DNA of 42,681 nucleotides from a virus. Taxonomy: Duplodnaviria; Heunggongvirae; Uroviricota; Caudoviricetes. Within the stretch, counting starts at the first letter, position 1, and every line of letters starts with the position of its first letter. The stretch lies in the IMG/VR virus record IMGVR_UViG_2718217863_000001, one strand, 5' to 3'. Shown one piece after another: positions 13,944 through 37,172 of the stretch. The position numbers were made by a program, and so were the translations under genes. Below the pieces are notes generated by a model. It was given only the letters and a program-made list of their open reading frames with translations. It did not search any database and was not told the origin of the DNA.

Positions 13944-15029
13944 ATGGGAAACTCCAAACGCATTGCTTTTAGAATAGTTATTACGCTCAACAACAACTCA
14001 GCAACCGTCGTACCTGAATGTCATAATTTAAAATATAAGTTCTCCAGAAATCACACTGACAAACTAGAAATCACTGGAGATACCATCACAATATCCGGTA
14101 GCCGTTCTGGAAAGCCTAATCTCGATGAAATATTCACCAATAATCAAAGCGAGGTTTATTTTCAGGTAATTAAATCATATATTTATTACTGCGTCGCGAA
14201 TGGCAACATATTTAAAATATTGAAAATAGAATGTCATAATAACGACGACGCCATCGATAAAGTATACTCTGGTGATGAGATACGAAATCTCAACGTGTCA
14301 AACAATGCACCAAATATAAGAAAGATAAACAAGGCAAAAGCGGCAATAATTTTTGAGGCCACGCCTGAAAGTAATAAATACCTGTACGCTATGAGCACAT
14401 TAATCCGTTCACTTTGTAGTGACGACAATAACGACATTTTCGAAAAAATATGGAAGTCCTATAACTCAATTTACCGAGTCATCAGCAATGAAAAGCAAGA
14501 GGTTGAATGTCTTAATGAAATGGGGAGGGAGATAATAAGCAACCCTGCAAACTACCCTCTTTCTGTAAATGCCGCTCAAGCCATTTCGGGTAATGATATA
14601 TCGGATTCCACTCGGTGGTGGAGGATGTTAGAGAATAAATTCATCATACGAGGAAATAAAAAAACTCGAGAAAATAATTTCTCTACCTTCCTTACTCAAT
14701 ATCAAGACTTTCGATTAAATGAAGTATCTCAGAGGAACGTTGATATTGAAAAAAACTTTTGGACCAACTCCAACCTAAAAACCACAACAATAAATGACAT
14801 TGCAAATAAAATAAATAACAACCAAAGAAATGATGCCGAAGTAGTTGATGCAATTTGTAATCATTACGCCTACTTCCTTAGAAATAAAACCCTGCATGGA
14901 GATCAAACAGATCATTCTTTCAGGTTCATACCCTATAACAAAGAAGAGAAAACATTGAAATTCACCTCGAATATTTTGTTTTTACTGGTGTGCGACCTGA
15001 TAAATAGCCACACACTCCAGACAAGTTAA
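13944..15029 (+). CDS. Orphan 361-aa AT-rich moron protein of unknown function (candidate defence/abortive-infection gene; possible HEPN-like Rx4H motif)
   Basis: Long ORF on the strand opposite all flanking late genes; Asn/Lys/Ile-rich composition unlike neighbours; sits at the V/S junction where P2 carries an accessory ORF; motif RNKTLH near C-terminus. Confidence 0.7.
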   Translation: MGNSKRIAFRIVITLNNNSATVVPECHNLKYKFSRNHTDKLEITGDTITISGSRSGKPNLDEIFTNNQSEVYFQVIKSYIYYCVANGNIFKILKIECHNNDDAIDKVYSGDEIRNLNVSNNAPNIRKINKAKAAIIFEATPESNKYLYAMSTLIRSLCSDDNNDIFEKIWKSYNSIYRVISNEKQEVECLNEMGREIISNPANYPLSVNAAQAISGNDISDSTRWWRMLENKFIIRGNKKTRENNFSTFLTQYQDFRLNEVSQRNVDIEKNFWTNSNLKTTTINDIANKINNNQRNDAEVVDAICNHYAYFLRNKTLHGDQTDHSFRFIPYNKEEKTLKFTSNILFLLVCDLINSHTLQTS

Positions 15030-16349: not shown

Positions 16350-16441
16350 TGTTCACTGCGTATTACCGTGAAGGAGATCGGTGAGTAACATCGATGGAGA
16401 TCGGTTCGTGTCACTTTCACAGAACCGTTTTTAAATTACCT

Positions 16442-17191
16442 TCACTGATCTCCTTCGGTCAACGGAGATTGTATTTTCCGCATTGATTCTCCTTTAAGTT
16501 CGATCTTGATACTGCCATGAACCAGTCGATCTAGGATGGCATCCGCATGTGTGGAGTCTCCGATCATTTTGTACCAGTTTTCCACCGGCAACTGGCTCAC
16601 TACGATGATTGAGCCTCGTTGGTACATCAGATCCACTATTTCCAGCAGGTCGCTACGCTGTTCTGATGAGAGAGGTTCCAGCCCCCAGTCATCCAGAAGC
16701 AGCAGATCGCTATTATTCAGCCTGGTCAAAAGTTTGCTGTATCTTCCATCAGCATGCCCCTGATAGCACTGTTCCATCAGCGCTTTAAGGCGATAATAGT
16801 AGACCTTGTATCCCTGTCGGCAGGCATTATGACCAAGTGCACATGCCAGGAACGTTTTACCGCTGCCGGTGGCCCCGGTCAGTAAAATATTTTGTTTCAG
16901 GGTTAACCAGTTTCCCTGACTGAGTGAACGGATGAGGGCCCTGTCCAGCCCTCTATTGTTACGATAATCCAGCTTTGATAACTCAGCATTAAGTCTGAAC
17001 CGTGCATGTTTGATCAGACGCTCTGCCTTCCTGTTTTCACGGCAGGTTAGTTCTTCTGCTGTCAGTAATGACAGGCGTTCTTCGAAGCCCAGCTCCTGGT
17101 ATGTGCCCGGCTGAGCAAGTTGCTTTTTAAGCGCATCACGGAAGCCGGTGAGTTTAAGTGCGGTCAGTTGTTCGTAAAGATGATTCATCAT
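16442..17191 (-). CDS. istB: IS21-family helper ATPase IstB
   Basis: 249 aa; Walker A GATGSGKT; IstB-like. Confidence 0.9.
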   Translation of the reverse strand: MMNHLYEQLTALKLTGFRDALKKQLAQPGTYQELGFEERLSLLTAEELTCRENRKAERLIKHARFRLNAELSKLDYRNNRGLDRALIRSLSQGNWLTLKQNILLTGATGSGKTFLACALGHNACRQGYKVYYYRLKALMEQCYQGHADGRYSKLLTRLNNSDLLLLDDWGLEPLSSEQRSDLLEIVDLMYQRGSIIVVSQLPVENWYKMIGDSTHADAILDRLVHGSIKIELKGESMRKIQSPLTEGDQ

Positions 17192-17202
17192 TGGATCCCG
17201 TA

Positions 17203-18744
17203 TCAGTGGTAATACTCACTGCCGCGTACGTTTTCGTGTTCCATCGTGGATAACAGATCTGGTTTTGGATCCTGAACAGGTTGTTTATCCAGACCTTTTT
17301 CCAGGATCGATTTAATACCTGACAGACGCCATACCTTTGTTTTCAGAGCTCTTGCACATGCTGCATTAAGTCTGGCTTTACTGTATTTTTTATGAAGGTT
17401 CAGGAGTCCAAGGCAGAAGCGATAGCTTTGTTCCGGATGTGGACGAGAGTTCAGTATATGAAGCACATAACTATGAGTTTCACTGCCTATGTGCCCCGCC
17501 CATTCCAGAAGACGCTCTGGCGTCCAGGTGGCATGCTGTCGATGAGCTTCAGGCATGTGCTCGTTGCGGGTACTGTAGCCATAAGTACGCTTGCGCGGGT
17601 GCACAGCAACCTCCTGCCCCTGATTGAAGAGTCTTACCAGTTCTCCGGAGATCCATGCTTCCAGTTGCTGGCCTAACAGCGAACATGGAACCGAGTAGTA
17701 ATGTTTGTCGATTTCCACGTGGTAATCGGCATGAACTCTGACTTTCTTCACCAGGGTGTAACTGTAACTGGCTTCAGGAAGAGGCTTCAGTGCGGGTTTA
17801 TCAAGCTGGATGAAGAGTTCTGCACGTGAATAACCCAACTTCTGCATTATTTTGTTATTCAGTCTTTCCAGCAACTCCCGAATGCGCTGATTAAGCGATG
17901 CAAGGCTGTAGAAGATCTCATGCCTGATTCGGGCCATGATCCAGCGTTCAACAACCTGAACGCCAACTTCAGCTTTGGCTTTATCTTTCGGTTTACGTGG
18001 CCGCGCAGGCAAAACTGCGACATTATAATGCTCAAGCATCTGCTGGTAGGTAGGGTTAACGTCAGGATCATACTTACATGCCCTGGATGTGGCGCTTTTC
18101 AGATTGTCCGGAACAACAAGTTCAGGAACGCCACCCAACCACTGGAAGCAGCGAACATGACTCATCACCCAGTCTTCAAGCTGCTGAGACCAGGTGGCCT
18201 CTGCCCATGTGTAACTTGATGCCCCGAGAACAGCTACGATGACCTGAGCAGTTCTTATTTCTCCGGTCTCAGGGTCGGTAACGCCAACGGTAGGTCCACA
18301 GTAATCAACGAAAAGTTTTTCGCCAGCTTTATGTACCTGACGCATTGATGGTGAAGTGGTTTTGAGCCATTCACGGTACATCCGGCAGTAATGGTTATAG
18401 CTGTAAAAACCGCCTGGATTACGCTCACAGTATTCTTCCCAGAGTAGCTGCAGCGTCACGCATTTATTACGCAGTTCCCGGTGTACTGTAGCCCAGTCAG
18501 GCAGAGAGTGCTTCTTCATCTTAACCTGGGTCTGAAGGAACGCATGTTTTAGTTTTGTATCATCCCATCCTGTAGGTAAGGGCCACTGCTTTATGCCAAG
18601 TTGAGCCGCCCGATTAGCATATCTGGATACAACGGAAGGGGAGATTGCAAGACTACGACCAATTTGTCGATGGCTGAGTCCAACACCGTATTTAAGCCTA
18701 AGAATTTCTTTAAGTTTTCTCATAGAAATTGGAACTGTTGGCAT
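17203..18744 (-). CDS. istA: IS21-family transposase IstA
   Basis: 513 aa; N-terminal HTH, DDE integrase core; upstream of istB. Confidence 0.9.
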   Translation of the reverse strand: MPTVPISMRKLKEILRLKYGVGLSHRQIGRSLAISPSVVSRYANRAAQLGIKQWPLPTGWDDTKLKHAFLQTQVKMKKHSLPDWATVHRELRNKCVTLQLLWEEYCERNPGGFYSYNHYCRMYREWLKTTSPSMRQVHKAGEKLFVDYCGPTVGVTDPETGEIRTAQVIVAVLGASSYTWAEATWSQQLEDWVMSHVRCFQWLGGVPELVVPDNLKSATSRACKYDPDVNPTYQQMLEHYNVAVLPARPRKPKDKAKAEVGVQVVERWIMARIRHEIFYSLASLNQRIRELLERLNNKIMQKLGYSRAELFIQLDKPALKPLPEASYSYTLVKKVRVHADYHVEIDKHYYSVPCSLLGQQLEAWISGELVRLFNQGQEVAVHPRKRTYGYSTRNEHMPEAHRQHATWTPERLLEWAGHIGSETHSYVLHILNSRPHPEQSYRFCLGLLNLHKKYSKARLNAACARALKTKVWRLSGIKSILEKGLDKQPVQDPKPDLLSTMEHENVRGSEYYH

Positions 18745-18943
18745 AGGTATCCTTTACCGGAATGGCAAAAGATACAGATCAACACACCTGTGAAGTTCCA
18801 ATAACATTGATGGAGATCACTGAATAACAAAATGAGTCAAAAGTGATCTCCATCGATGTTATTCAGCGATCTGTTCAAATGTTATTACCCGATCTCGATG
18901 GAAGTTATTGAGTGATCTCCTTTCATGAAAATACGCAGTTCAC

Positions 18944-26799: not shown

Positions 26800-28017
26800 T
26801 TAATTAGCTTTATCAAGGCGTCCCCCCACCACCATCCGCTTGTAATTTATTGCGAACAACTTAAGTTTTTCAGGGAACTTTGACGCCAAAATTATTGACT
26901 TTCTGTCTACATATGAATAAAAGGGCATTGATATCAAAATAGTTATCATCGAAGTTAAGATAAATGTAACAAACGCACCAACGGACGGCGACGCAATGTT
27001 TTTGTAAACCCAAAAACCAACTATAGATATAACAAATGGATGAAGCAAGTATATTGAAAATGACAACCTCCCAATAAACAAGACTACATTTTTGCTCATC
27101 CCCCTTAAACATCTCCCATTCACAAAGACAGAAGCAATAATCAAAAAAGAACCAAGCGATATTGTAAACTCTGGCCATTGTATTAATATATCGCATTGAA
27201 ACTGAAGGTAGAGGTAAAATTCAACCAGATCTTTATACGCAGTGCTCGCCGGTGCATACCCAACAAGATAAAGGCCAATAAACAACATAAGAAGCGATAC
27301 AAGCTTTCTTAACCGTCCATTATTTTCACTTATCTCGAAAGTTGATAAAAACACACCAGAAAGGAAAAGCCCATAATAAATTATATTAATACTACCAGAC
27401 AAAAACATACAAACAAATGAAATAAATGACAACCAGCGAAGAATGGTCTTGTTCTCACCAAACAGAGATATAAATCCGTATACCAATATAGAACCAAAAA
27501 ACTCAATACTAATAGTCCACAGAACATAGTTATACTTTATATTACCAAAAAGCATAGCGCCAAATGAAGCATCCCATATGGCTGACACTATATTCCCATC
27601 AAAACTAAACGCAGTCATTAACGGCATTGATGCAGCGGGGCTATCCTTATCCGGAAAAAAGCCCAACAACATTATAAAATAGCAAATAATCACAGATGCT
27701 GCTACGGGAACCCCAAGCCTAATGTATCTCTTCAATGCTGATGCTTGTATATAGCGTATTTCGTTATTATTTTTTTGGCAACTCAGTGACAAAACCAACC
27801 CGCTCAAAACAAAGAATAAGCTAACAGCAGATCCCCCCTTATAGAAAAAAGTAAAAGGGCTATTAAATAAATTTTCTTGCCACTTGCTATCAAACATACT
27901 GCCAGAATGCACCGAAGGTATAAACATTAAAAATGAATGCGATAAAACGACAGCCATGGCTGCCACACCTCTTATCCCATCAAAGATTTTTACATTATTT
28001 CTCTCATTATCACTCAT
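26800..28017 (-). CDS. Acyltransferase family 3 integral membrane protein (OafA/Oac-like O-acetyltransferase), cargo gene
   Basis: 405 aa, about 10 predicted TM helices; N-terminal GIRGVAAMAVVLSH motif characteristic of acyltransferase-3 family; very AT-rich. Confidence 0.8.
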   Translation of the reverse strand: MSDNERNNVKIFDGIRGVAAMAVVLSHSFLMFIPSVHSGSMFDSKWQENLFNSPFTFFYKGGSAVSLFFVLSGLVLSLSCQKNNNEIRYIQASALKRYIRLGVPVAASVIICYFIMLLGFFPDKDSPAASMPLMTAFSFDGNIVSAIWDASFGAMLFGNIKYNYVLWTISIEFFGSILVYGFISLFGENKTILRWLSFISFVCMFLSGSINIIYYGLFLSGVFLSTFEISENNGRLRKLVSLLMLFIGLYLVGYAPASTAYKDLVEFYLYLQFQCDILIQWPEFTISLGSFLIIASVFVNGRCLRGMSKNVVLFIGRLSFSIYLLHPFVISIVGFWVYKNIASPSVGAFVTFILTSMITILISMPFYSYVDRKSIILASKFPEKLKLFAINYKRMVVGGRLDKAN

Positions 28018-33072: not shown

Positions 33073-33648
33073 TTGATACTTGATACTCAGGTGAATAACG
33101 ACGAGTTACTGGATAGAATCTGTCAAGTATATGGTTTTACTCAAAAAATCCAGCTAGCCCGGCATTTCAATATTGCCGCCAGTTCCCTACAAAACCGCTA
33201 CACGCGAGGCACTGTTTCTTATGATTTCGCCGTACAGTGCGCATTAGAAACCGGGGCAAGCCTACTATGGCTTCTTACGGGGCAAGGCTCTCAATATGAC
33301 GGCAAACAGTCTCCAACGGATCCGAAAACGATAGACGCCTTCACTCTTAGTGATGGAAAGCTCGAAGAAAATTCACCATTGAGTATTGATGCTGGTTTCT
33401 TTAGTAAGCAAATGTCAAAAGGTATTGCTGTTCGCGCCGATGGAAAGCTGCACTTTATAGAACAAGATGCCTCACTTTCTGATGGCCTTTGGTTGGTTGA
33501 TATTGAGGGGGCTACCAGCATCAGAGAATTGACGCTCCTACCCGGTAAAAAGTTACACGTTGCTGGCGGCAAAGTACCGTTTGAGTGCGGGATAGATGAG
33601 ATAAAAACGATTGGCCGTGTAGTGGGTGTATACAGCGAGGTTAATTGA
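33073..33648 (+). CDS. cI: CI immunity repressor (186 CI-like)
   Basis: 191 aa; N-terminal HTH LDRICQVYGFTQKIQLARHF; TTG start per ORF track; ATGA overlap with int. Confidence 0.8.
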   Translation: MILDTQVNNDELLDRICQVYGFTQKIQLARHFNIAASSLQNRYTRGTVSYDFAVQCALETGASLLWLLTGQGSQYDGKQSPTDPKTIDAFTLSDGKLEENSPLSIDAGFFSKQMSKGIAVRADGKLHFIEQDASLSDGLWLVDIEGATSIRELTLLPGKKLHVAGGKVPFECGIDEIKTIGRVVGVYSEVN

Positions 33649-34652
33649 TGACTGTCCGTAAAAATCCGGCTGGCGGTTGGATTTGTGAGCTCTACCCAAA
33701 CGGTGCAAAAGGCAAACGTATCAGAAAGAAATTCGCTACTAAAGGCGAGGCGCTGGCGTTTGAGCAGTACACCGTTCAAAACCCGTGGCAGGAAGAAAAG
33801 GAAGACAGGCGCACGTTAAAAGAGTTGGTTGATTCATGGTATAGCGCTCATGGCATTACACTGAAAGACGGCTTGAAACGCCAGCTAGCCATGCACCATG
33901 CTTTTGAGTGTATGGGCGAACCACTTACACGCGATTTCGATGCGCAGATGTTTTCCCGCTACCGAGAAAAACGGTTAAAAGGCGAGTACGCCCGTTCAAA
34001 CAGAGTGAAAGAGGTATCGCCTCGCACGCTTAATCTTGAGCTGGCCTACTTCCGGGCTGTGTTCAATGAGCTAAACCGCCTCGGAGAATGGAAGGGTGAA
34101 AACCCACTGAAAAACATGCGCCCATTCCGCACAGAAGAAATGGAAATGGCCTGGCTGACTCACGACCAGATTTCGCTACTGCTCGGAGAGTGTAAACGGC
34201 ATGACCACCCTGATTTAGAAACTGTGGTAAGAATTTGTCTCGCCACTGGCGCACGGTGGTCTGAGGCCGAGAACCTGAGAAAAAGCCAGCTTGCGAAATA
34301 CAAAATCACATACACCAACACGAAAGGCAGAAAAAACCGCACCGTTCCAATTAGCAAAGAGCTCTATGATTCTCTGCCTGATGATAAAAAAGGCAGGTTG
34401 TTTAGTGATTGTTATGGCGCGTTCCGGTCTGCGCTGGAAAGAACAGGCATCGAATTACCGGCAGGGCAACTTACCCATGTTTTACGCCACACCTTCGCCA
34501 GTCACTTTATGATGAATGGTGGTAATATTCTGGTCTTGCAGCGCGTGCTCGGTCATACCGACATCAAAATGACAATGCGTTACGCACATTTCGCCCCAGA
34601 CCATCTGGAGGATGCAGTAAGGCTAAACCCACTGAACAACAACAGAGATTAG
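33645..34652 (+). CDS. int: Tyrosine integrase (P2/186 family)
   Basis: 335 aa; catalytic motif HVLRHTFASHFMMNGG...LGHTDIKMTMRYAHF. Confidence 0.9.
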   Translation: MMTVRKNPAGGWICELYPNGAKGKRIRKKFATKGEALAFEQYTVQNPWQEEKEDRRTLKELVDSWYSAHGITLKDGLKRQLAMHHAFECMGEPLTRDFDAQMFSRYREKRLKGEYARSNRVKEVSPRTLNLELAYFRAVFNELNRLGEWKGENPLKNMRPFRTEEMEMAWLTHDQISLLLGECKRHDHPDLETVVRICLATGARWSEAENLRKSQLAKYKITYTNTKGRKNRTVPISKELYDSLPDDKKGRLFSDCYGAFRSALERTGIELPAGQLTHVLRHTFASHFMMNGGNILVLQRVLGHTDIKMTMRYAHFAPDHLEDAVRLNPLNNNRD

Positions 34653-34662
34653 CCCCATTAAG

Positions 34663-36126
34663 TCATTTGCCGAGCATCTCTCTTAAATCTTGAGCCCAAT
34701 GCGTATCGTCAGATTGGATCGTTCCTTCAACATCAGTAAGCAGTTTTTGCTCAAGAATTGTCTCGGCATTTCGACTCTGGCTAAAGTATCTTACCGTTTC
34801 GGCAAAGTCCCAATTCTCATCTGCAAGCAGGCGCGGCTGGAAAGAATGACAGTAGATTGCAGCTATATCTTTACCCATAAAGTCAAAATCAGAAATCAAT
34901 TCGCAAATTTTCATATCACGTGCAAATTCGATCTGAGGGCCATGCAAGGTTTCATATCCAATATGAATTATTGTTGATTCTCCAATCGGAGCCTGCTTTA
35001 CAGCCTGAACAAGTACCCTTTTTATATCTTTTGCCTTTTTATCGACAGACTCATCAGCGAGACAAATCCATTTTGCGCAGAAAGGCATTTCTATCTCATC
35101 AATGAATACATTTATTGTACTAAGTTCATCATTGCTAAAAGTGCATAACTTTGCGTTGCAAACCATTGTATAACTTCCAAACGGGTCATACTGGTCATCT
35201 AATAAGGAATTTAATTGAGGAGAAGGATATTTCACATGCCACTTTCTTAAGTGGTTATCCACCCGTTCCATATCAATTAAGTTAGCCTGAACCAAAATAT
35301 CATCGCTCTCACATACTGCAATCTTACCTTTCACAAGATGATCAGAGCCGTAAATTTTTGCTACAGCACCGAGAAACACATCGATACGCGTTTTTACTAT
35401 TTCAGTTTTGAAAATCACATCAAAAAAAACTGGCTTATGGTATCGAGTAATCAATGGTCGAGCCATTTCCCACCGCTTCAACCACTCCGCCCTTTCTTCT
35501 TCTGAGTACTGAGTCACCTTTGCTAATCGCTTGCACTCAACATAAAAAATATCAGTGCCTTTAACAACTTTGAGGTCTGGTGTTTTATGAGCTCCTGTTT
35601 CTGGAATGAACTCAACTTCCCAGCCATTTTTCAAATAGCAGATAGCCACAACCAACTCAAACAAAATGGAATCAGGCTGGTTGATTGTCTTAACAAGCAA
35701 GTCATTTAATTTGGATTCAATACCTTTGACCTGCTTCAACTTTTCGCTATGTTCACCGATAACTGCGAAAAAATGCCAAATTCTTGACGACTGAGCTGGC
35801 TCATCTACTGTTGGGCGATCAGCCAAAGATTCAACTAAGTACAAATACCATGCAATCCAGTCATCATAGAATGCCAGGCGTGCATCTTTCTCATGGAAAG
35901 AAACGTCAGATTTTCCTGTGAAAAGGCGCTCCGACATTTCGCGGAAGTAAGCCAAAACCGCCCCACGACGCTCAACCCATTTATCTTCACCCATTACATC
36001 AATAAACCAACGGTATGCTGTTTTTATCTCTTTGACTAATGGGGCATCATGTCTATGATTGAAGCGTTCAAAAAATGCAGCATACTCATCTTCAACACTC
36101 TGATTTTTGGTATTTTTTTCACCCAT
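34663..36126 (-). CDS. Orphan 487-aa protein with PD-(D/E)xK nuclease-like core (candidate defence nuclease); alternative start 36159
   Basis: Motif TPDLKVV-x9-YVECKRL (D-x13-ExK) after hydrophobic strand LFELVVAICYL; GGTGGA RBS 7 nt before ATG at 36126; lies between int and attR; AT-richer than backbone. Confidence 0.7.
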   Translation of the reverse strand: MGEKNTKNQSVEDEYAAFFERFNHRHDAPLVKEIKTAYRWFIDVMGEDKWVERRGAVLAYFREMSERLFTGKSDVSFHEKDARLAFYDDWIAWYLYLVESLADRPTVDEPAQSSRIWHFFAVIGEHSEKLKQVKGIESKLNDLLVKTINQPDSILFELVVAICYLKNGWEVEFIPETGAHKTPDLKVVKGTDIFYVECKRLAKVTQYSEEERAEWLKRWEMARPLITRYHKPVFFDVIFKTEIVKTRIDVFLGAVAKIYGSDHLVKGKIAVCESDDILVQANLIDMERVDNHLRKWHVKYPSPQLNSLLDDQYDPFGSYTMVCNAKLCTFSNDELSTINVFIDEIEMPFCAKWICLADESVDKKAKDIKRVLVQAVKQAPIGESTIIHIGYETLHGPQIEFARDMKICELISDFDFMGKDIAAIYCHSFQPRLLADENWDFAETVRYFSQSRNAETILEQKLLTDVEGTIQSDDTHWAQDLREMLGK

Positions 36127-36370
36127 CGTGATTCCACCTAGCTTATGCGGTTTATGCATTCAAGATTAACTAACTTGCATGTTATCATTTTTGATATCAG
36201 GCAAGTGTTAGTCACGCTATAAAGGCTAGGTTGCCGTTTAAAGGCAATATGATAAGTGGCGATAAAGTGGCGGTAGAAATGGCTGATAATGTCTAATCAC
36301 TGGCAAACGCTGGCCATTTATGTCAATGATAAATAAAGCAAACTATTGATTTTCGGTTGTTCAGGTAGGA

Positions 36371-36416
36371 ACTCATAATCGCCTGGTCGCTGGTTCAAGT
36401 CCAGCAAGGGCCACCA
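36371..36416 (+). repeat. attR: displaced partial 3' end of tRNA-Ile2 (direct repeat of 2843-2888)
   Basis: 46-nt match with 2 mismatches; lacks 5' half of tRNA. Confidence 0.75.
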
Positions 36417-37172
36417 AATCATTATTCACGTATCAGGAAGAGTTAAGGTTACAAGGGGGACTCGATGGCGGTCAATATTTCACGACTAACGCCATTTTAA
36501 AGAAGCAGTGCGGTAGGTAGTTTCGAATGAGGGCTGGTGTTTTGGTACGTGGCACGCCACTGCAATGTATTTATCCATCAGTACTCATTCAAAAGTACCT
36601 GGAAAAAATGCCCGCTATGCCAAGCGGGCAAATTGCTTACATGTGGAATTAAGTAATTAACGATAAAGCCAGAGTATTATCATTTATCATGCCTCTTCAT
36701 TTAATCAGGTTAATTACTCAAATCACTGAACTATTCTCTGTTCGCTCACTGATGATAAGTGAAGTGTCACAACCACGATTTGTATGTGGACCAATGCCGT
36801 AGAGTAAGGATGAAATGTCTCTGCCACGCCTTAAACATCTACTACTGACTAGAACCGCCGTCGAATGCAGAAGAGTCTTGTGAGCATTACAGGAGTCTGG
36901 CTTTGGTCATTAATCAACGCTATTTAGATATAAATTTCTAACACTCAAAAAACGATTCTCACGAATAAATTATAACGGGTGGTTTTTATCATACAGTGAA
37001 ATAACCTTTTGTTTATTAAATTTAACATTCCTGTGCTAAATTAATTAAAAGTGCCATGTATAGCATATGAAGCTGTTAATGCCAGCAATTGTCTCAAATG
37101 AGCGATTTTTTATAGTGACAAACAATAATAACATTAAAAATAGCCATGTAGACATTAACTGAGGAATAGACA

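Follow-up and report, generated by a model that had tools for sequence, protein, structure and literature searches.

The window analyzed in this work is the whole 42,681-nucleotide (nt) stretch of the IMG/VR virus record IMGVR_UViG_2718217863_000001. It contains a 186-type prophage of approximately 33.5 kb bounded by 49-nt direct repeats, and particular attention was devoted to a solitary cargo gene located at the right end of this prophage, between the integrase gene int and the attachment site attR. At this end, cI (33073-33648, plus strand) is placed directly before int (33645-34652, plus strand), which encodes a 186-type tyrosine integrase according to both the open reading frame (ORF) list and the Prokaryotic Genome Annotation Pipeline (PGAP). 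The longest ORF of the interval (34663-36159, minus strand) encodes 498 amino acids (aa) from an ATG at 36159 and converges on int, the inner boundary of the cassette, across a gap of 10 nt. The attR core repeat at 36371-36419 (plus strand) holds a partial tRNA 3' end, detected as a sub-threshold tRNA match, and is 96% identical to the attL core repeat at 2843-2891 (plus strand). The latter is found at the 3' end of an intact tRNA gene (2813-2888) annotated by PGAP as tRNA-Ile, as it is at the same site in thousands of E. coli genomes. ARAGORN labels this gene tRNA-Met (anticodon CAT) and the attB site of phage 186 is recorded in ileY; the 'Met' call is a tool artefact since the tRNA is of the lysidine-type tRNA-Ile2.

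An earlier reading of the sequence, hereafter the original prediction, had proposed a candidate single-gene anti-phage nuclease at this position. Its account of a large ORF wedged between the int stop codon (34652) and attR (36371), transcribed towards int from the opposite strand and richer in AT than its surroundings, agrees with the coordinates given above and with GC contents of 0.40 for the cargo gene and 0.52 for the prophage backbone. The good ribosome binding site credited to this ORF of about 490 aa is present as well, in the form of a Shine-Dalgarno-like GGTGG read from the sequence at 36134-36138 (minus strand), but it serves an ATG at 36126 rather than the one at 36159, which upon inspection of the sequence is preceded by nothing comparable. 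Since 7 nt separate this GGTGG from the ATG at 36126 and the PGAP product (WP_052935640.1, 'hypothetical protein') is the 487-aa form, the true start is most likely at 36126. The corresponding coding sequence, stop codon included, extends over 34663-36126 (minus strand) and was retained on the basis of the ribosome binding site, of PGAP and of the ratio of nonsynonymous to synonymous substitution rates (dN/dS). All residues are numbered according to the 487-aa form.

The statement that attP lies directly beside int in P2/186-type phages is approximately right, as the interval between int and the attP arm of phage 186 holds only the 84-aa Orf69. The cI-int block and the att core matches together span just 1.7-2.0 kb in 186, in EtG and in many Yersinia and Salmonella relatives. 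Because of this short int-att interval, the approximately 1.6 kb present here is an insertion relative to these phages. The comparison across relatives suggested with the original prediction was performed, and the cargo gene is missing from 186, EtG and other relatives.

The outer boundary of the cassette is formed by a tandem pair of Int arm-type sites, TACCGCCACTT and TATCGCCACTT (36254-36275, minus strand), which belong to the attP P-arm and agree with the consensus YAYCGCCAYTY given for such sites in the phage 186 record U32222. A homology break is located at 36255. Given these tandem sites, the segment extending from 36255 to the att core is attributed to the attP P-arm and not to a private regulatory region. 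About half of the 245 nt upstream of the gene consequently consists of P-arm, and the upstream region that the gene was said to own could not be retained as a promoter region, being largely attP arm and devoid of a sigma-70 consensus on the minus strand. The allele-specific 5' leader (128 nt, 36127-36254, minus strand), within which any cassette promoter should be located, is not alignable between prophages having int and the att arm in common. It contains no small ORF above chance length, and no Rfam element was found in the cassette region except the partial tRNA at attR. The host flank contains, about 190 nt beyond attR, a strong terminator-like hairpin (36609-36630, minus strand; 8 bp including 6 GC, followed by a T-run), which would stop host read-through into the cassette.

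The window was then compared, segment by segment, to four prophages carrying a different allele of the gene. Nucleotide identity amounts to 87-90% over the att core plus arm and to 86-93% over int, whereas it decreases to 65-66% over the ORF and to 24-37% over the leader, where the many gaps amount to a lack of alignability. Inside one allele group dN/dS is 0.07-0.14; between allele groups the synonymous sites are saturated (proportion of synonymous differences pS >= 0.75) and no dN/dS is computable. Because the moderately similar ORF and the unalignable leader are enclosed between a far more similar att arm and int, and because dN/dS is low, leader and ORF appear in this comparison as a discrete module under strong purifying selection, with an evolution separate from that of its surroundings. 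By the same comparison, the cassette alleles are far older than the prophage backbone around them and are swapped through recombination, within limits set precisely by the int stop codon and the last arm site. Recombination at this slot would explain the occurrence of anciently diverged alleles in the same slot of otherwise close prophages.

Predicted nuclease core and flanking domains

The motif PDLKVVKGTDIFYVECK, with D184, E197 and K199, is present in the central part of the protein. The PD...ExK arrangement noticed in the original prediction is therefore real, with the correction that the spacing from D to E is 13 and not 14 residues. The motif string alone is weak evidence, since PD-x(8,20)-[DE]xK occurs in 15.5% of shuffles of the 487-aa protein. 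The family-wide invariance of the motif, together with the predicted fold, is beyond chance. The 206 clusters returned by a homology search are uniformly annotated as 'hypothetical' and lack Pfam domains. When 65 sequences sharing 28-72% identity were aligned, no variation was seen at E157, P183-D184 or E197-C198-K199-R200. E157, E197 and K199 are still invariant in 54 distant relatives at 20-31% identity, where D184 is at least 90% conserved. The conservation check advised for the catalytic D, E and K was thus passed in an aligned set of over 100 relatives whose identity falls as low as 20%.

The structure predicted by AlphaFold2 with the family alignment is of high confidence (predicted local distance difference test score, pLDDT, 90.8; predicted template modelling score, pTM, 0.91). 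It displays a canonical succession of one helix, three strands, one helix and one strand at residues 151-239, which corresponds to the alpha-beta-beta-beta-alpha-beta core fold of the PD-(D/E)xK superfamily. The core as a whole was delimited at residues ~146-240 (35407-35691, minus strand). E157 (35656-35658, minus strand) belongs to its first helix, P183-D184 (35575-35577, minus strand) to a strand and E197-C-K199 (35530-35538, minus strand) to a further strand, followed by the last helix and strand. The catalytic set of the superfamily, namely E in the first helix, D at the beginning of strand 2 and (D/E)xK in strand 3, is thereby complete. Local Foldseek matches were obtained with Hjc, I-Ssp6803I, HindIII and HincII, so that the nuclease fold suspected at first was recovered with confidence and with PD-(D/E)xK proteins as structural neighbours. 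A whole-chain Foldseek search against PDB yielded no match (best E 0.06, template modelling score 0.11). On the strength of residue conservation and of this model, we conclude that the 487-aa protein has a predicted intact PD-(D/E)xK catalytic core, and nuclease activity would consist in metal-dependent cleavage of nucleic acid.

The core is flanked by two domains, neither of which could be assigned to a type. The N-terminal one is all-helical in the AlphaFold2 secondary structure (residues ~11-145, 35692-36096, minus strand), contains the invariant residues W50, R53, F61, W93, Y94, R115 and G124, and matches no family or solved structure. The C-terminal one is an alpha/beta domain (residues 241-487, 34666-35406, minus strand) with a strongly conserved patch, the domain being conserved to the same degree as the core: mean column conservation is 0.61 at residues 358-457 versus 0.64 for the core. 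Even the most distant relatives show no change at Q378 or H388, and at least 90% of them keep E392 and E443; within the closer set, these two glutamates as well as T393, E400, R403, T444, H476 and W477 vary little or not at all. Sequence-profile searches of PDB, run once for the whole family and once for its C-terminal half, returned noise only (AphA, E 1.7; a cell-surface protein, E 0.34). The absence of any recognizable motif in the flanks, as first described, is borne out by the lack of Pfam or solved-structure matches to either domain. The high pTM of the full model suggests that the three parts form one compact body. This three-part architecture is fixed, as no informative extra domain was found in family members. 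Fused domains were considered in the longer members P0180 and P0217 and rejected: their N-terminal extensions match nothing in Pfam and seem to result from wrongly assigned start codons.

Family and genomic contexts

An exhaustive profile search of 1.84 billion representatives retrieved 1,111 proteins at E<=1e-3, including 229 at E<=1e-30. Nearly all of these family members measure 430-490 aa and are matched end to end, and the family comprises about 1,100 clusters at 50% identity, distributed from Proteobacteria to Bacteroidota. The 487-aa protein itself has no Pfam, NCBIfam or PADLOC match at E<=10. Isolated chance-level matches only were obtained for its relatives against PADLOC, and the sole PHROGs match is phrog_37220, of 'unknown function'. 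A named family was also sought by comparing the 54 distant members (20-31% identity) to Pfam and PADLOC; this route was abandoned, as only sporadic sub-threshold matches to Mrr_cat and Hjc were obtained. The sub-threshold Pfam matches of some relatives (Mrr_cat, Hjc and AHJR-like) fall exactly on the core segment. Their scores (13-18 versus 21 bits for Mrr_cat, 17 versus 21.1 for Hjc and 16.4 versus 26.1 for AHJR-like) are below the curated gathering cut-offs, and membership in these named families of the Pfam clan was not assigned.

One distant member has been noticed before. WP_194933767.1, related to the family with an hhalign probability of 99.9% (E 4.5e-32, 390 columns), is listed as 'Putative novel defense gene' with a mean log-odds of 13.1 in Table S4 of DefensePredictor (Science 2026, PMC13092281). 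The suggestion that the protein may be undescribed therefore stands as far as Pfam, NCBIfam and PADLOC models are concerned, but has to be tempered by PHROG 37220 and by this single listing. The 90%-identity cluster of the window protein (P0001) includes many truncated forms, for example of 322 aa on 33 Enterobacter contigs and others of 190, 167 and 141 aa. Such forms suggest that the gene has been inactivated repeatedly in certain lineages, perhaps owing to a fitness cost.

All contexts examined, eight types in all, belong to mobile elements, and the gene stands alone in each of them. In addition to the int-att junction of 186-like prophages of E. coli and Salmonella, it was found in the P2-like Escherichia phage 899 and Yersinia phage GMG73, in the G/FI slot between tail-fibre assembly and tail-sheath genes. 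Lambdoid prophages carry it as well, between the replication genes and hok/Rem/DUF968/rusA/Q in E. coli; in Proteus, it is flanked by dnaB and the nin genes and is read from the opposite strand. The remaining contexts consist of a conjugative or mobilisable element of Pseudomonas mendocina (TrfA/MobA/TraD/TraG), where the gene directly follows the integrase, of an integrase islet of ~5 kb between tatD and rsmF in Aeromonas, and of a Bacteroidota genome where it is located among IS66/DDE transposase and helicase genes. No conserved partner gene, small ORF or small RNA was detected in the cassette or in the contexts examined, and no conserved adjacent partner of the toxin-antitoxin kind was found since the neighbours differ in every context. 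In Escherichia phage 899, the neighbour is a 348-aa DUF3800 protein (8607-9653, Pfam E 1.4e-5) unrelated to the family; it is probably independent cargo because it was not found with the family elsewhere.

The scan of IMG/VR yielded 28 family loci. In 15 of the 27 that were analyzed, the gene is transcribed towards a convergent 186-type integrase sharing 87-100% identity with that of the window, across a gap of 8-25 nt. Among the loci with this Int-cassette adjacency, CI is 54-100% identical and the replication protein 35-100% identical. Among 5,426 complete E. coli genomes, 37-39 contain the window allele, and two further alleles occur in 11 and 42, so that the three together reach ~1.7% of these genomes. 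The patchy accessory distribution and the placement in variable or cargo slots of mobile elements that characterize defence genes in general were both observed. The int-att interval has itself been described as a minor P2 defence hotspot, with 3% of systems (bioRxiv 10.64898/2026.02.27.708500). On both points the original prediction fared well: the gene stands alone, without conserved partner, and its locations are recognised cargo or defence slots of temperate phages and other mobile elements. The int-att slot also takes other cargo, as Yersinia phage vB_YenM_56.17 has at this junction an unrelated 483-aa hypothetical protein (4060-5511, same strand as int) without Pfam match and with a marginal PADLOC match to PDC-M48A (E 9e-4). 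This protein was considered as a divergent homolog and rejected (BLASTP E 0.75).

Proposed role and competing explanations

The explanation favoured here, with moderate confidence, is that the cargo gene encodes a single-protein defence nuclease provided with flanking domains for recognition or autoinhibition, the gene being as part of this explanation a lysogen-benefit cargo gene (moron) of the 186-type prophage. A phage-borne defence cargo is proposed because a nuclease core and extra conserved domains are combined in a solitary, AT-rich and rare gene, located in known variable or defence slots of several unrelated mobile elements, transcribed against the neighbouring operon and displaying deep allelic diversity at a fixed slot. 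The DefensePredictor listing of WP_194933767.1 provides independent support. That the gene is functional follows from the low dN/dS within the allele group. As a hedged hypothesis, the single-gene anti-phage nuclease originally put forward is in agreement with the fold, the residues, the solitary state and the location; the anti-phage role is what we infer. The gene would be expressed in the lysogen and act against phages or other mobile elements. In such a mechanism, the central core (E157, D184, E197, K199) would be the nucleic-acid-cleaving effector, while the N-terminal helical domain and the C-terminal alpha/beta domain, with its Q378, H388 and E392 patch, would recognise the target or restrain the nuclease until an infection cue is received. 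The competing phage would then be blocked by cleavage either of the incoming DNA, in a restriction-like manner, or of cellular nucleic acid, by abortive infection. Direct restriction of the Type IV kind would fit a solitary nuclease, and abortive infection is equally a candidate mode.

A number of observations weigh against this explanation. PD-(D/E)xK folds also perform recombination, repair, homing and toxin functions, and the nearest structural neighbours of the core include Holliday-junction resolvases and a CdiA toxin domain. The lambdoid contexts correspond to a region which also houses phage recombination and resolvase genes (rusA, DUF968). The minus (coding) strand upstream of the gene showed no sigma-70 consensus promoter, and the target-recognition or regulatory role of the flanking domains is one that we infer purely from their presence beside the core. 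PADLOC-DB v2.0.0 returns no family for the 487-aa protein at E<=10. The tested or validated proteins of DefensePredictor tables S6-S8 (PMC13092281) include no family member, and neither do the Vassallo 2022 and Rousset 2022 supplements. Literature searches with accessions and signature peptides retrieved no experiment and a single match, the DefensePredictor computational prediction.

Some of these observations would also be accommodated by a DNA-processing enzyme, active in recombination or repair, as a structure-specific resolvase or as a host-takeover nuclease, and benefiting the phage's own cycle. Holliday-junction resolvases of the Hjc type rank with the best matches to the core, both in structure and, weakly, in sequence, and the lambdoid copies are inserted between the replication genes and rusA/DUF968/Q, the home of recombination accessory genes. 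Such a role is nevertheless unlikely. The gene is dispensable, since phage 186 and many viable relatives lack it, and it occupies unrelated positions in different phage types as well as in non-phage integrative elements. It is moreover transcribed against the neighbouring operon, as it converges on int in the window and is found on the opposite strand in the Proteus prophage, and its low GC is typical of cargo. Finally, with 487 aa and two extra conserved domains, the protein does not resemble resolvases of 120 aa.

The precise intergenic slot, with its presence/absence polymorphism, sharp boundaries and divergent alleles, could also be expected of a selfish, free-standing cassette of the homing-endonuclease type, which would cut cassette-free relatives at the int-att junction or at other slots and be spread by repair copying with no benefit to the host. 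The occurrence of the gene in several unrelated intergenic phage slots and the presence of the PD-(D/E)xK homing endonuclease I-Ssp6803I among the structural neighbours are in line with this possibility, to which we nonetheless give little credit. Free-standing homing endonucleases are usually much smaller than 487 aa, and the size of the protein, like its distribution, is atypical in this respect. The family is large and is also represented in chromosomal islets and conjugative elements without obvious cognate empty site. The same allele is found beside integrases 87-100% identical, which together with a long divergence and a strong purifying selection is a better fit to a beneficial function, and one family member is scored as defence-like by DefensePredictor.

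Equally improbable is another kind of toxic effector, such as an addiction or stabilisation toxin, a superinfection exclusion protein acting without nucleic-acid cleavage, or an RNase or tRNase whose target is not primarily phage infection. No conserved antitoxin or immunity partner is present in any context, window included, and a solitary gene of constitutive toxicity could not persist under the strong purifying selection observed; an RNA-targeting role in abortive infection would still be defence. As for a decaying or non-functional ORF with a fortuitous PD..ExK string, the frequency of the motif in shuffles (15.5%) and the lack of Pfam, NCBIfam or PADLOC match are outweighed by ~1,100 representative clusters of the same full-length architecture, invariant catalytic residues, a dN/dS of 0.07-0.14 and a confident fold prediction, which effectively refute it.

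A broader proposal, which is tentative and which we hold with less assurance than the defence function itself, is that the gene may be the founding example of a widespread and undescribed family of single-protein immune nucleases. Its members would carry a PD-(D/E)xK effector in a fixed three-domain body, the C-terminal domain, devoid of structural relative, contributing an invariant Q/H/E site of its own, which might be a second catalytic centre or a pocket that senses a ligand or trigger. Ancient alleles would be shuffled as int-attP cassettes and could be specificity variants under frequency-dependent selection. If a defence function were confirmed, a large nameless family would gain a function and could join the tools used for defence annotation. 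The int-attP interval of 186-type phages would then be a slot exchanging divergent alleles of one defence family, a process different from the usual replacement by unrelated systems, and the conserved C-terminal domain would become a candidate for a new sensor or regulatory module of nuclease effectors. Should the function not be defence, the cassette, with its precise boundaries and deep alleles, would be a promising representative of a new class of selfish nucleases in temperate phages.

Remaining prophage features and comparison with known systems

Other features were recorded in the prophage and its flank. An IS21-family element of 2,581 bp (16357-18937, with istA at 17203-18744 and istB at 16442-17191), 99.9% identical to the ISEc12 copies of strain MLI106K4, is located in the late region of the prophage at the lysB gene (Rz-like spanin) of the IS-free copy. 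A 6-bp overlap indicates a target-site duplication, and because the element interrupts the lysB site the window prophage may be lysis-defective. Two further cargo genes are present. The first (13944-15029, plus strand, 361 aa, GC 0.357) is encoded on the strand that does not carry the late genes and separates the baseplate V gene from the virion-morphogenesis gene; it is called 'hypothetical protein' by PGAP, has no Pfam match and is another uncharacterised moron. The second (26800-28017, minus strand, GC 0.36), in the portal/replication hotspot, encodes an Acyl_transf_3 acyltransferase (E 1e-25), of a type that often modifies the O-antigen in lysogens. In the host flank just outside attR, a 484-aa protein with DUF5507 and DUF5508 (37173-38627, plus strand, GC ~0.33-0.35) is followed by a recombinase fragment, then by the ypjA/ehaD autotransporter gene, a pseudogene in strain MLI106K4. 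This arrangement suggests an older island associated with that same tRNA.

With regard to known systems, the closest in design is Shedu (SduA, DUF4263), likewise a single polypeptide carried by mobile elements and containing a PD-(D/E)xK core among extra domains. Shedu is described (bioRxiv 10.1101/2023.08.10.552793) as an immune PD-(D/E)xK nuclease regulated by variable sensor domains. The nuclease restrained or targeted by accessory domains that is proposed here would follow the same logic. No DUF4263 or PADLOC Shedu match was obtained with the 487-aa protein or with the 54 distant members, and the core is here central, between conserved helical and alpha/beta domains, in an architecture that is fixed and not modular. 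Mrr-type (Type IV; Mrr_cat, PF04471) enzymes are similar in being solitary nucleases without methyltransferase, and the best weak Pfam signal of several members is Mrr_cat at the catalytic region (E 0.0025-0.1). They differ in that all these matches are below the gathering score, that the Mrr_N winged-helix is absent and that the flanks are unrelated to Pfam. As concerns Type IV systems in general, the gene is solitary in the window and elsewhere, and the Pfam scan detected no known reader domain (SRA, Mrr_N, DUF3427 or similar).

The nearest solved structures to the core are archaeal Hjc and CdiA-CT (Burkholderia 1026b-type), at 12-14% sequence identity, but these are stand-alone domains of 120-130 residues without N- or C-terminal domains and belong to unrelated biological contexts. 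Among the 42 E. coli systems (DS-n) validated in the DefensePredictor study (PMC13092281), PD-(D/E)XK cores in otherwise novel proteins are the commonest class. The present family likewise consists of such a core in an otherwise novel protein, and one distant member is listed there as a prediction. Single-gene PD-(D/E)xK candidates are now numerous; the present one has a new domain architecture within a large unnamed family, clear limits, a wide distribution and an independent prediction in its favour, and it stands out by the unexplained conservation of its C-terminal domain and by an unusual pattern of cassette alleles at the int-attP slot. This pattern also sets the gene apart from the cargo of P2/186 hotspots (P2 old and the systems of Rousset et al. 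2022). The likeness resides in a single AT-rich accessory gene occupying a variable slot and replaced by unrelated genes in relatives. There is no sequence relation between them, and one family recurs here as deeply diverged alleles instead of unrelated systems.

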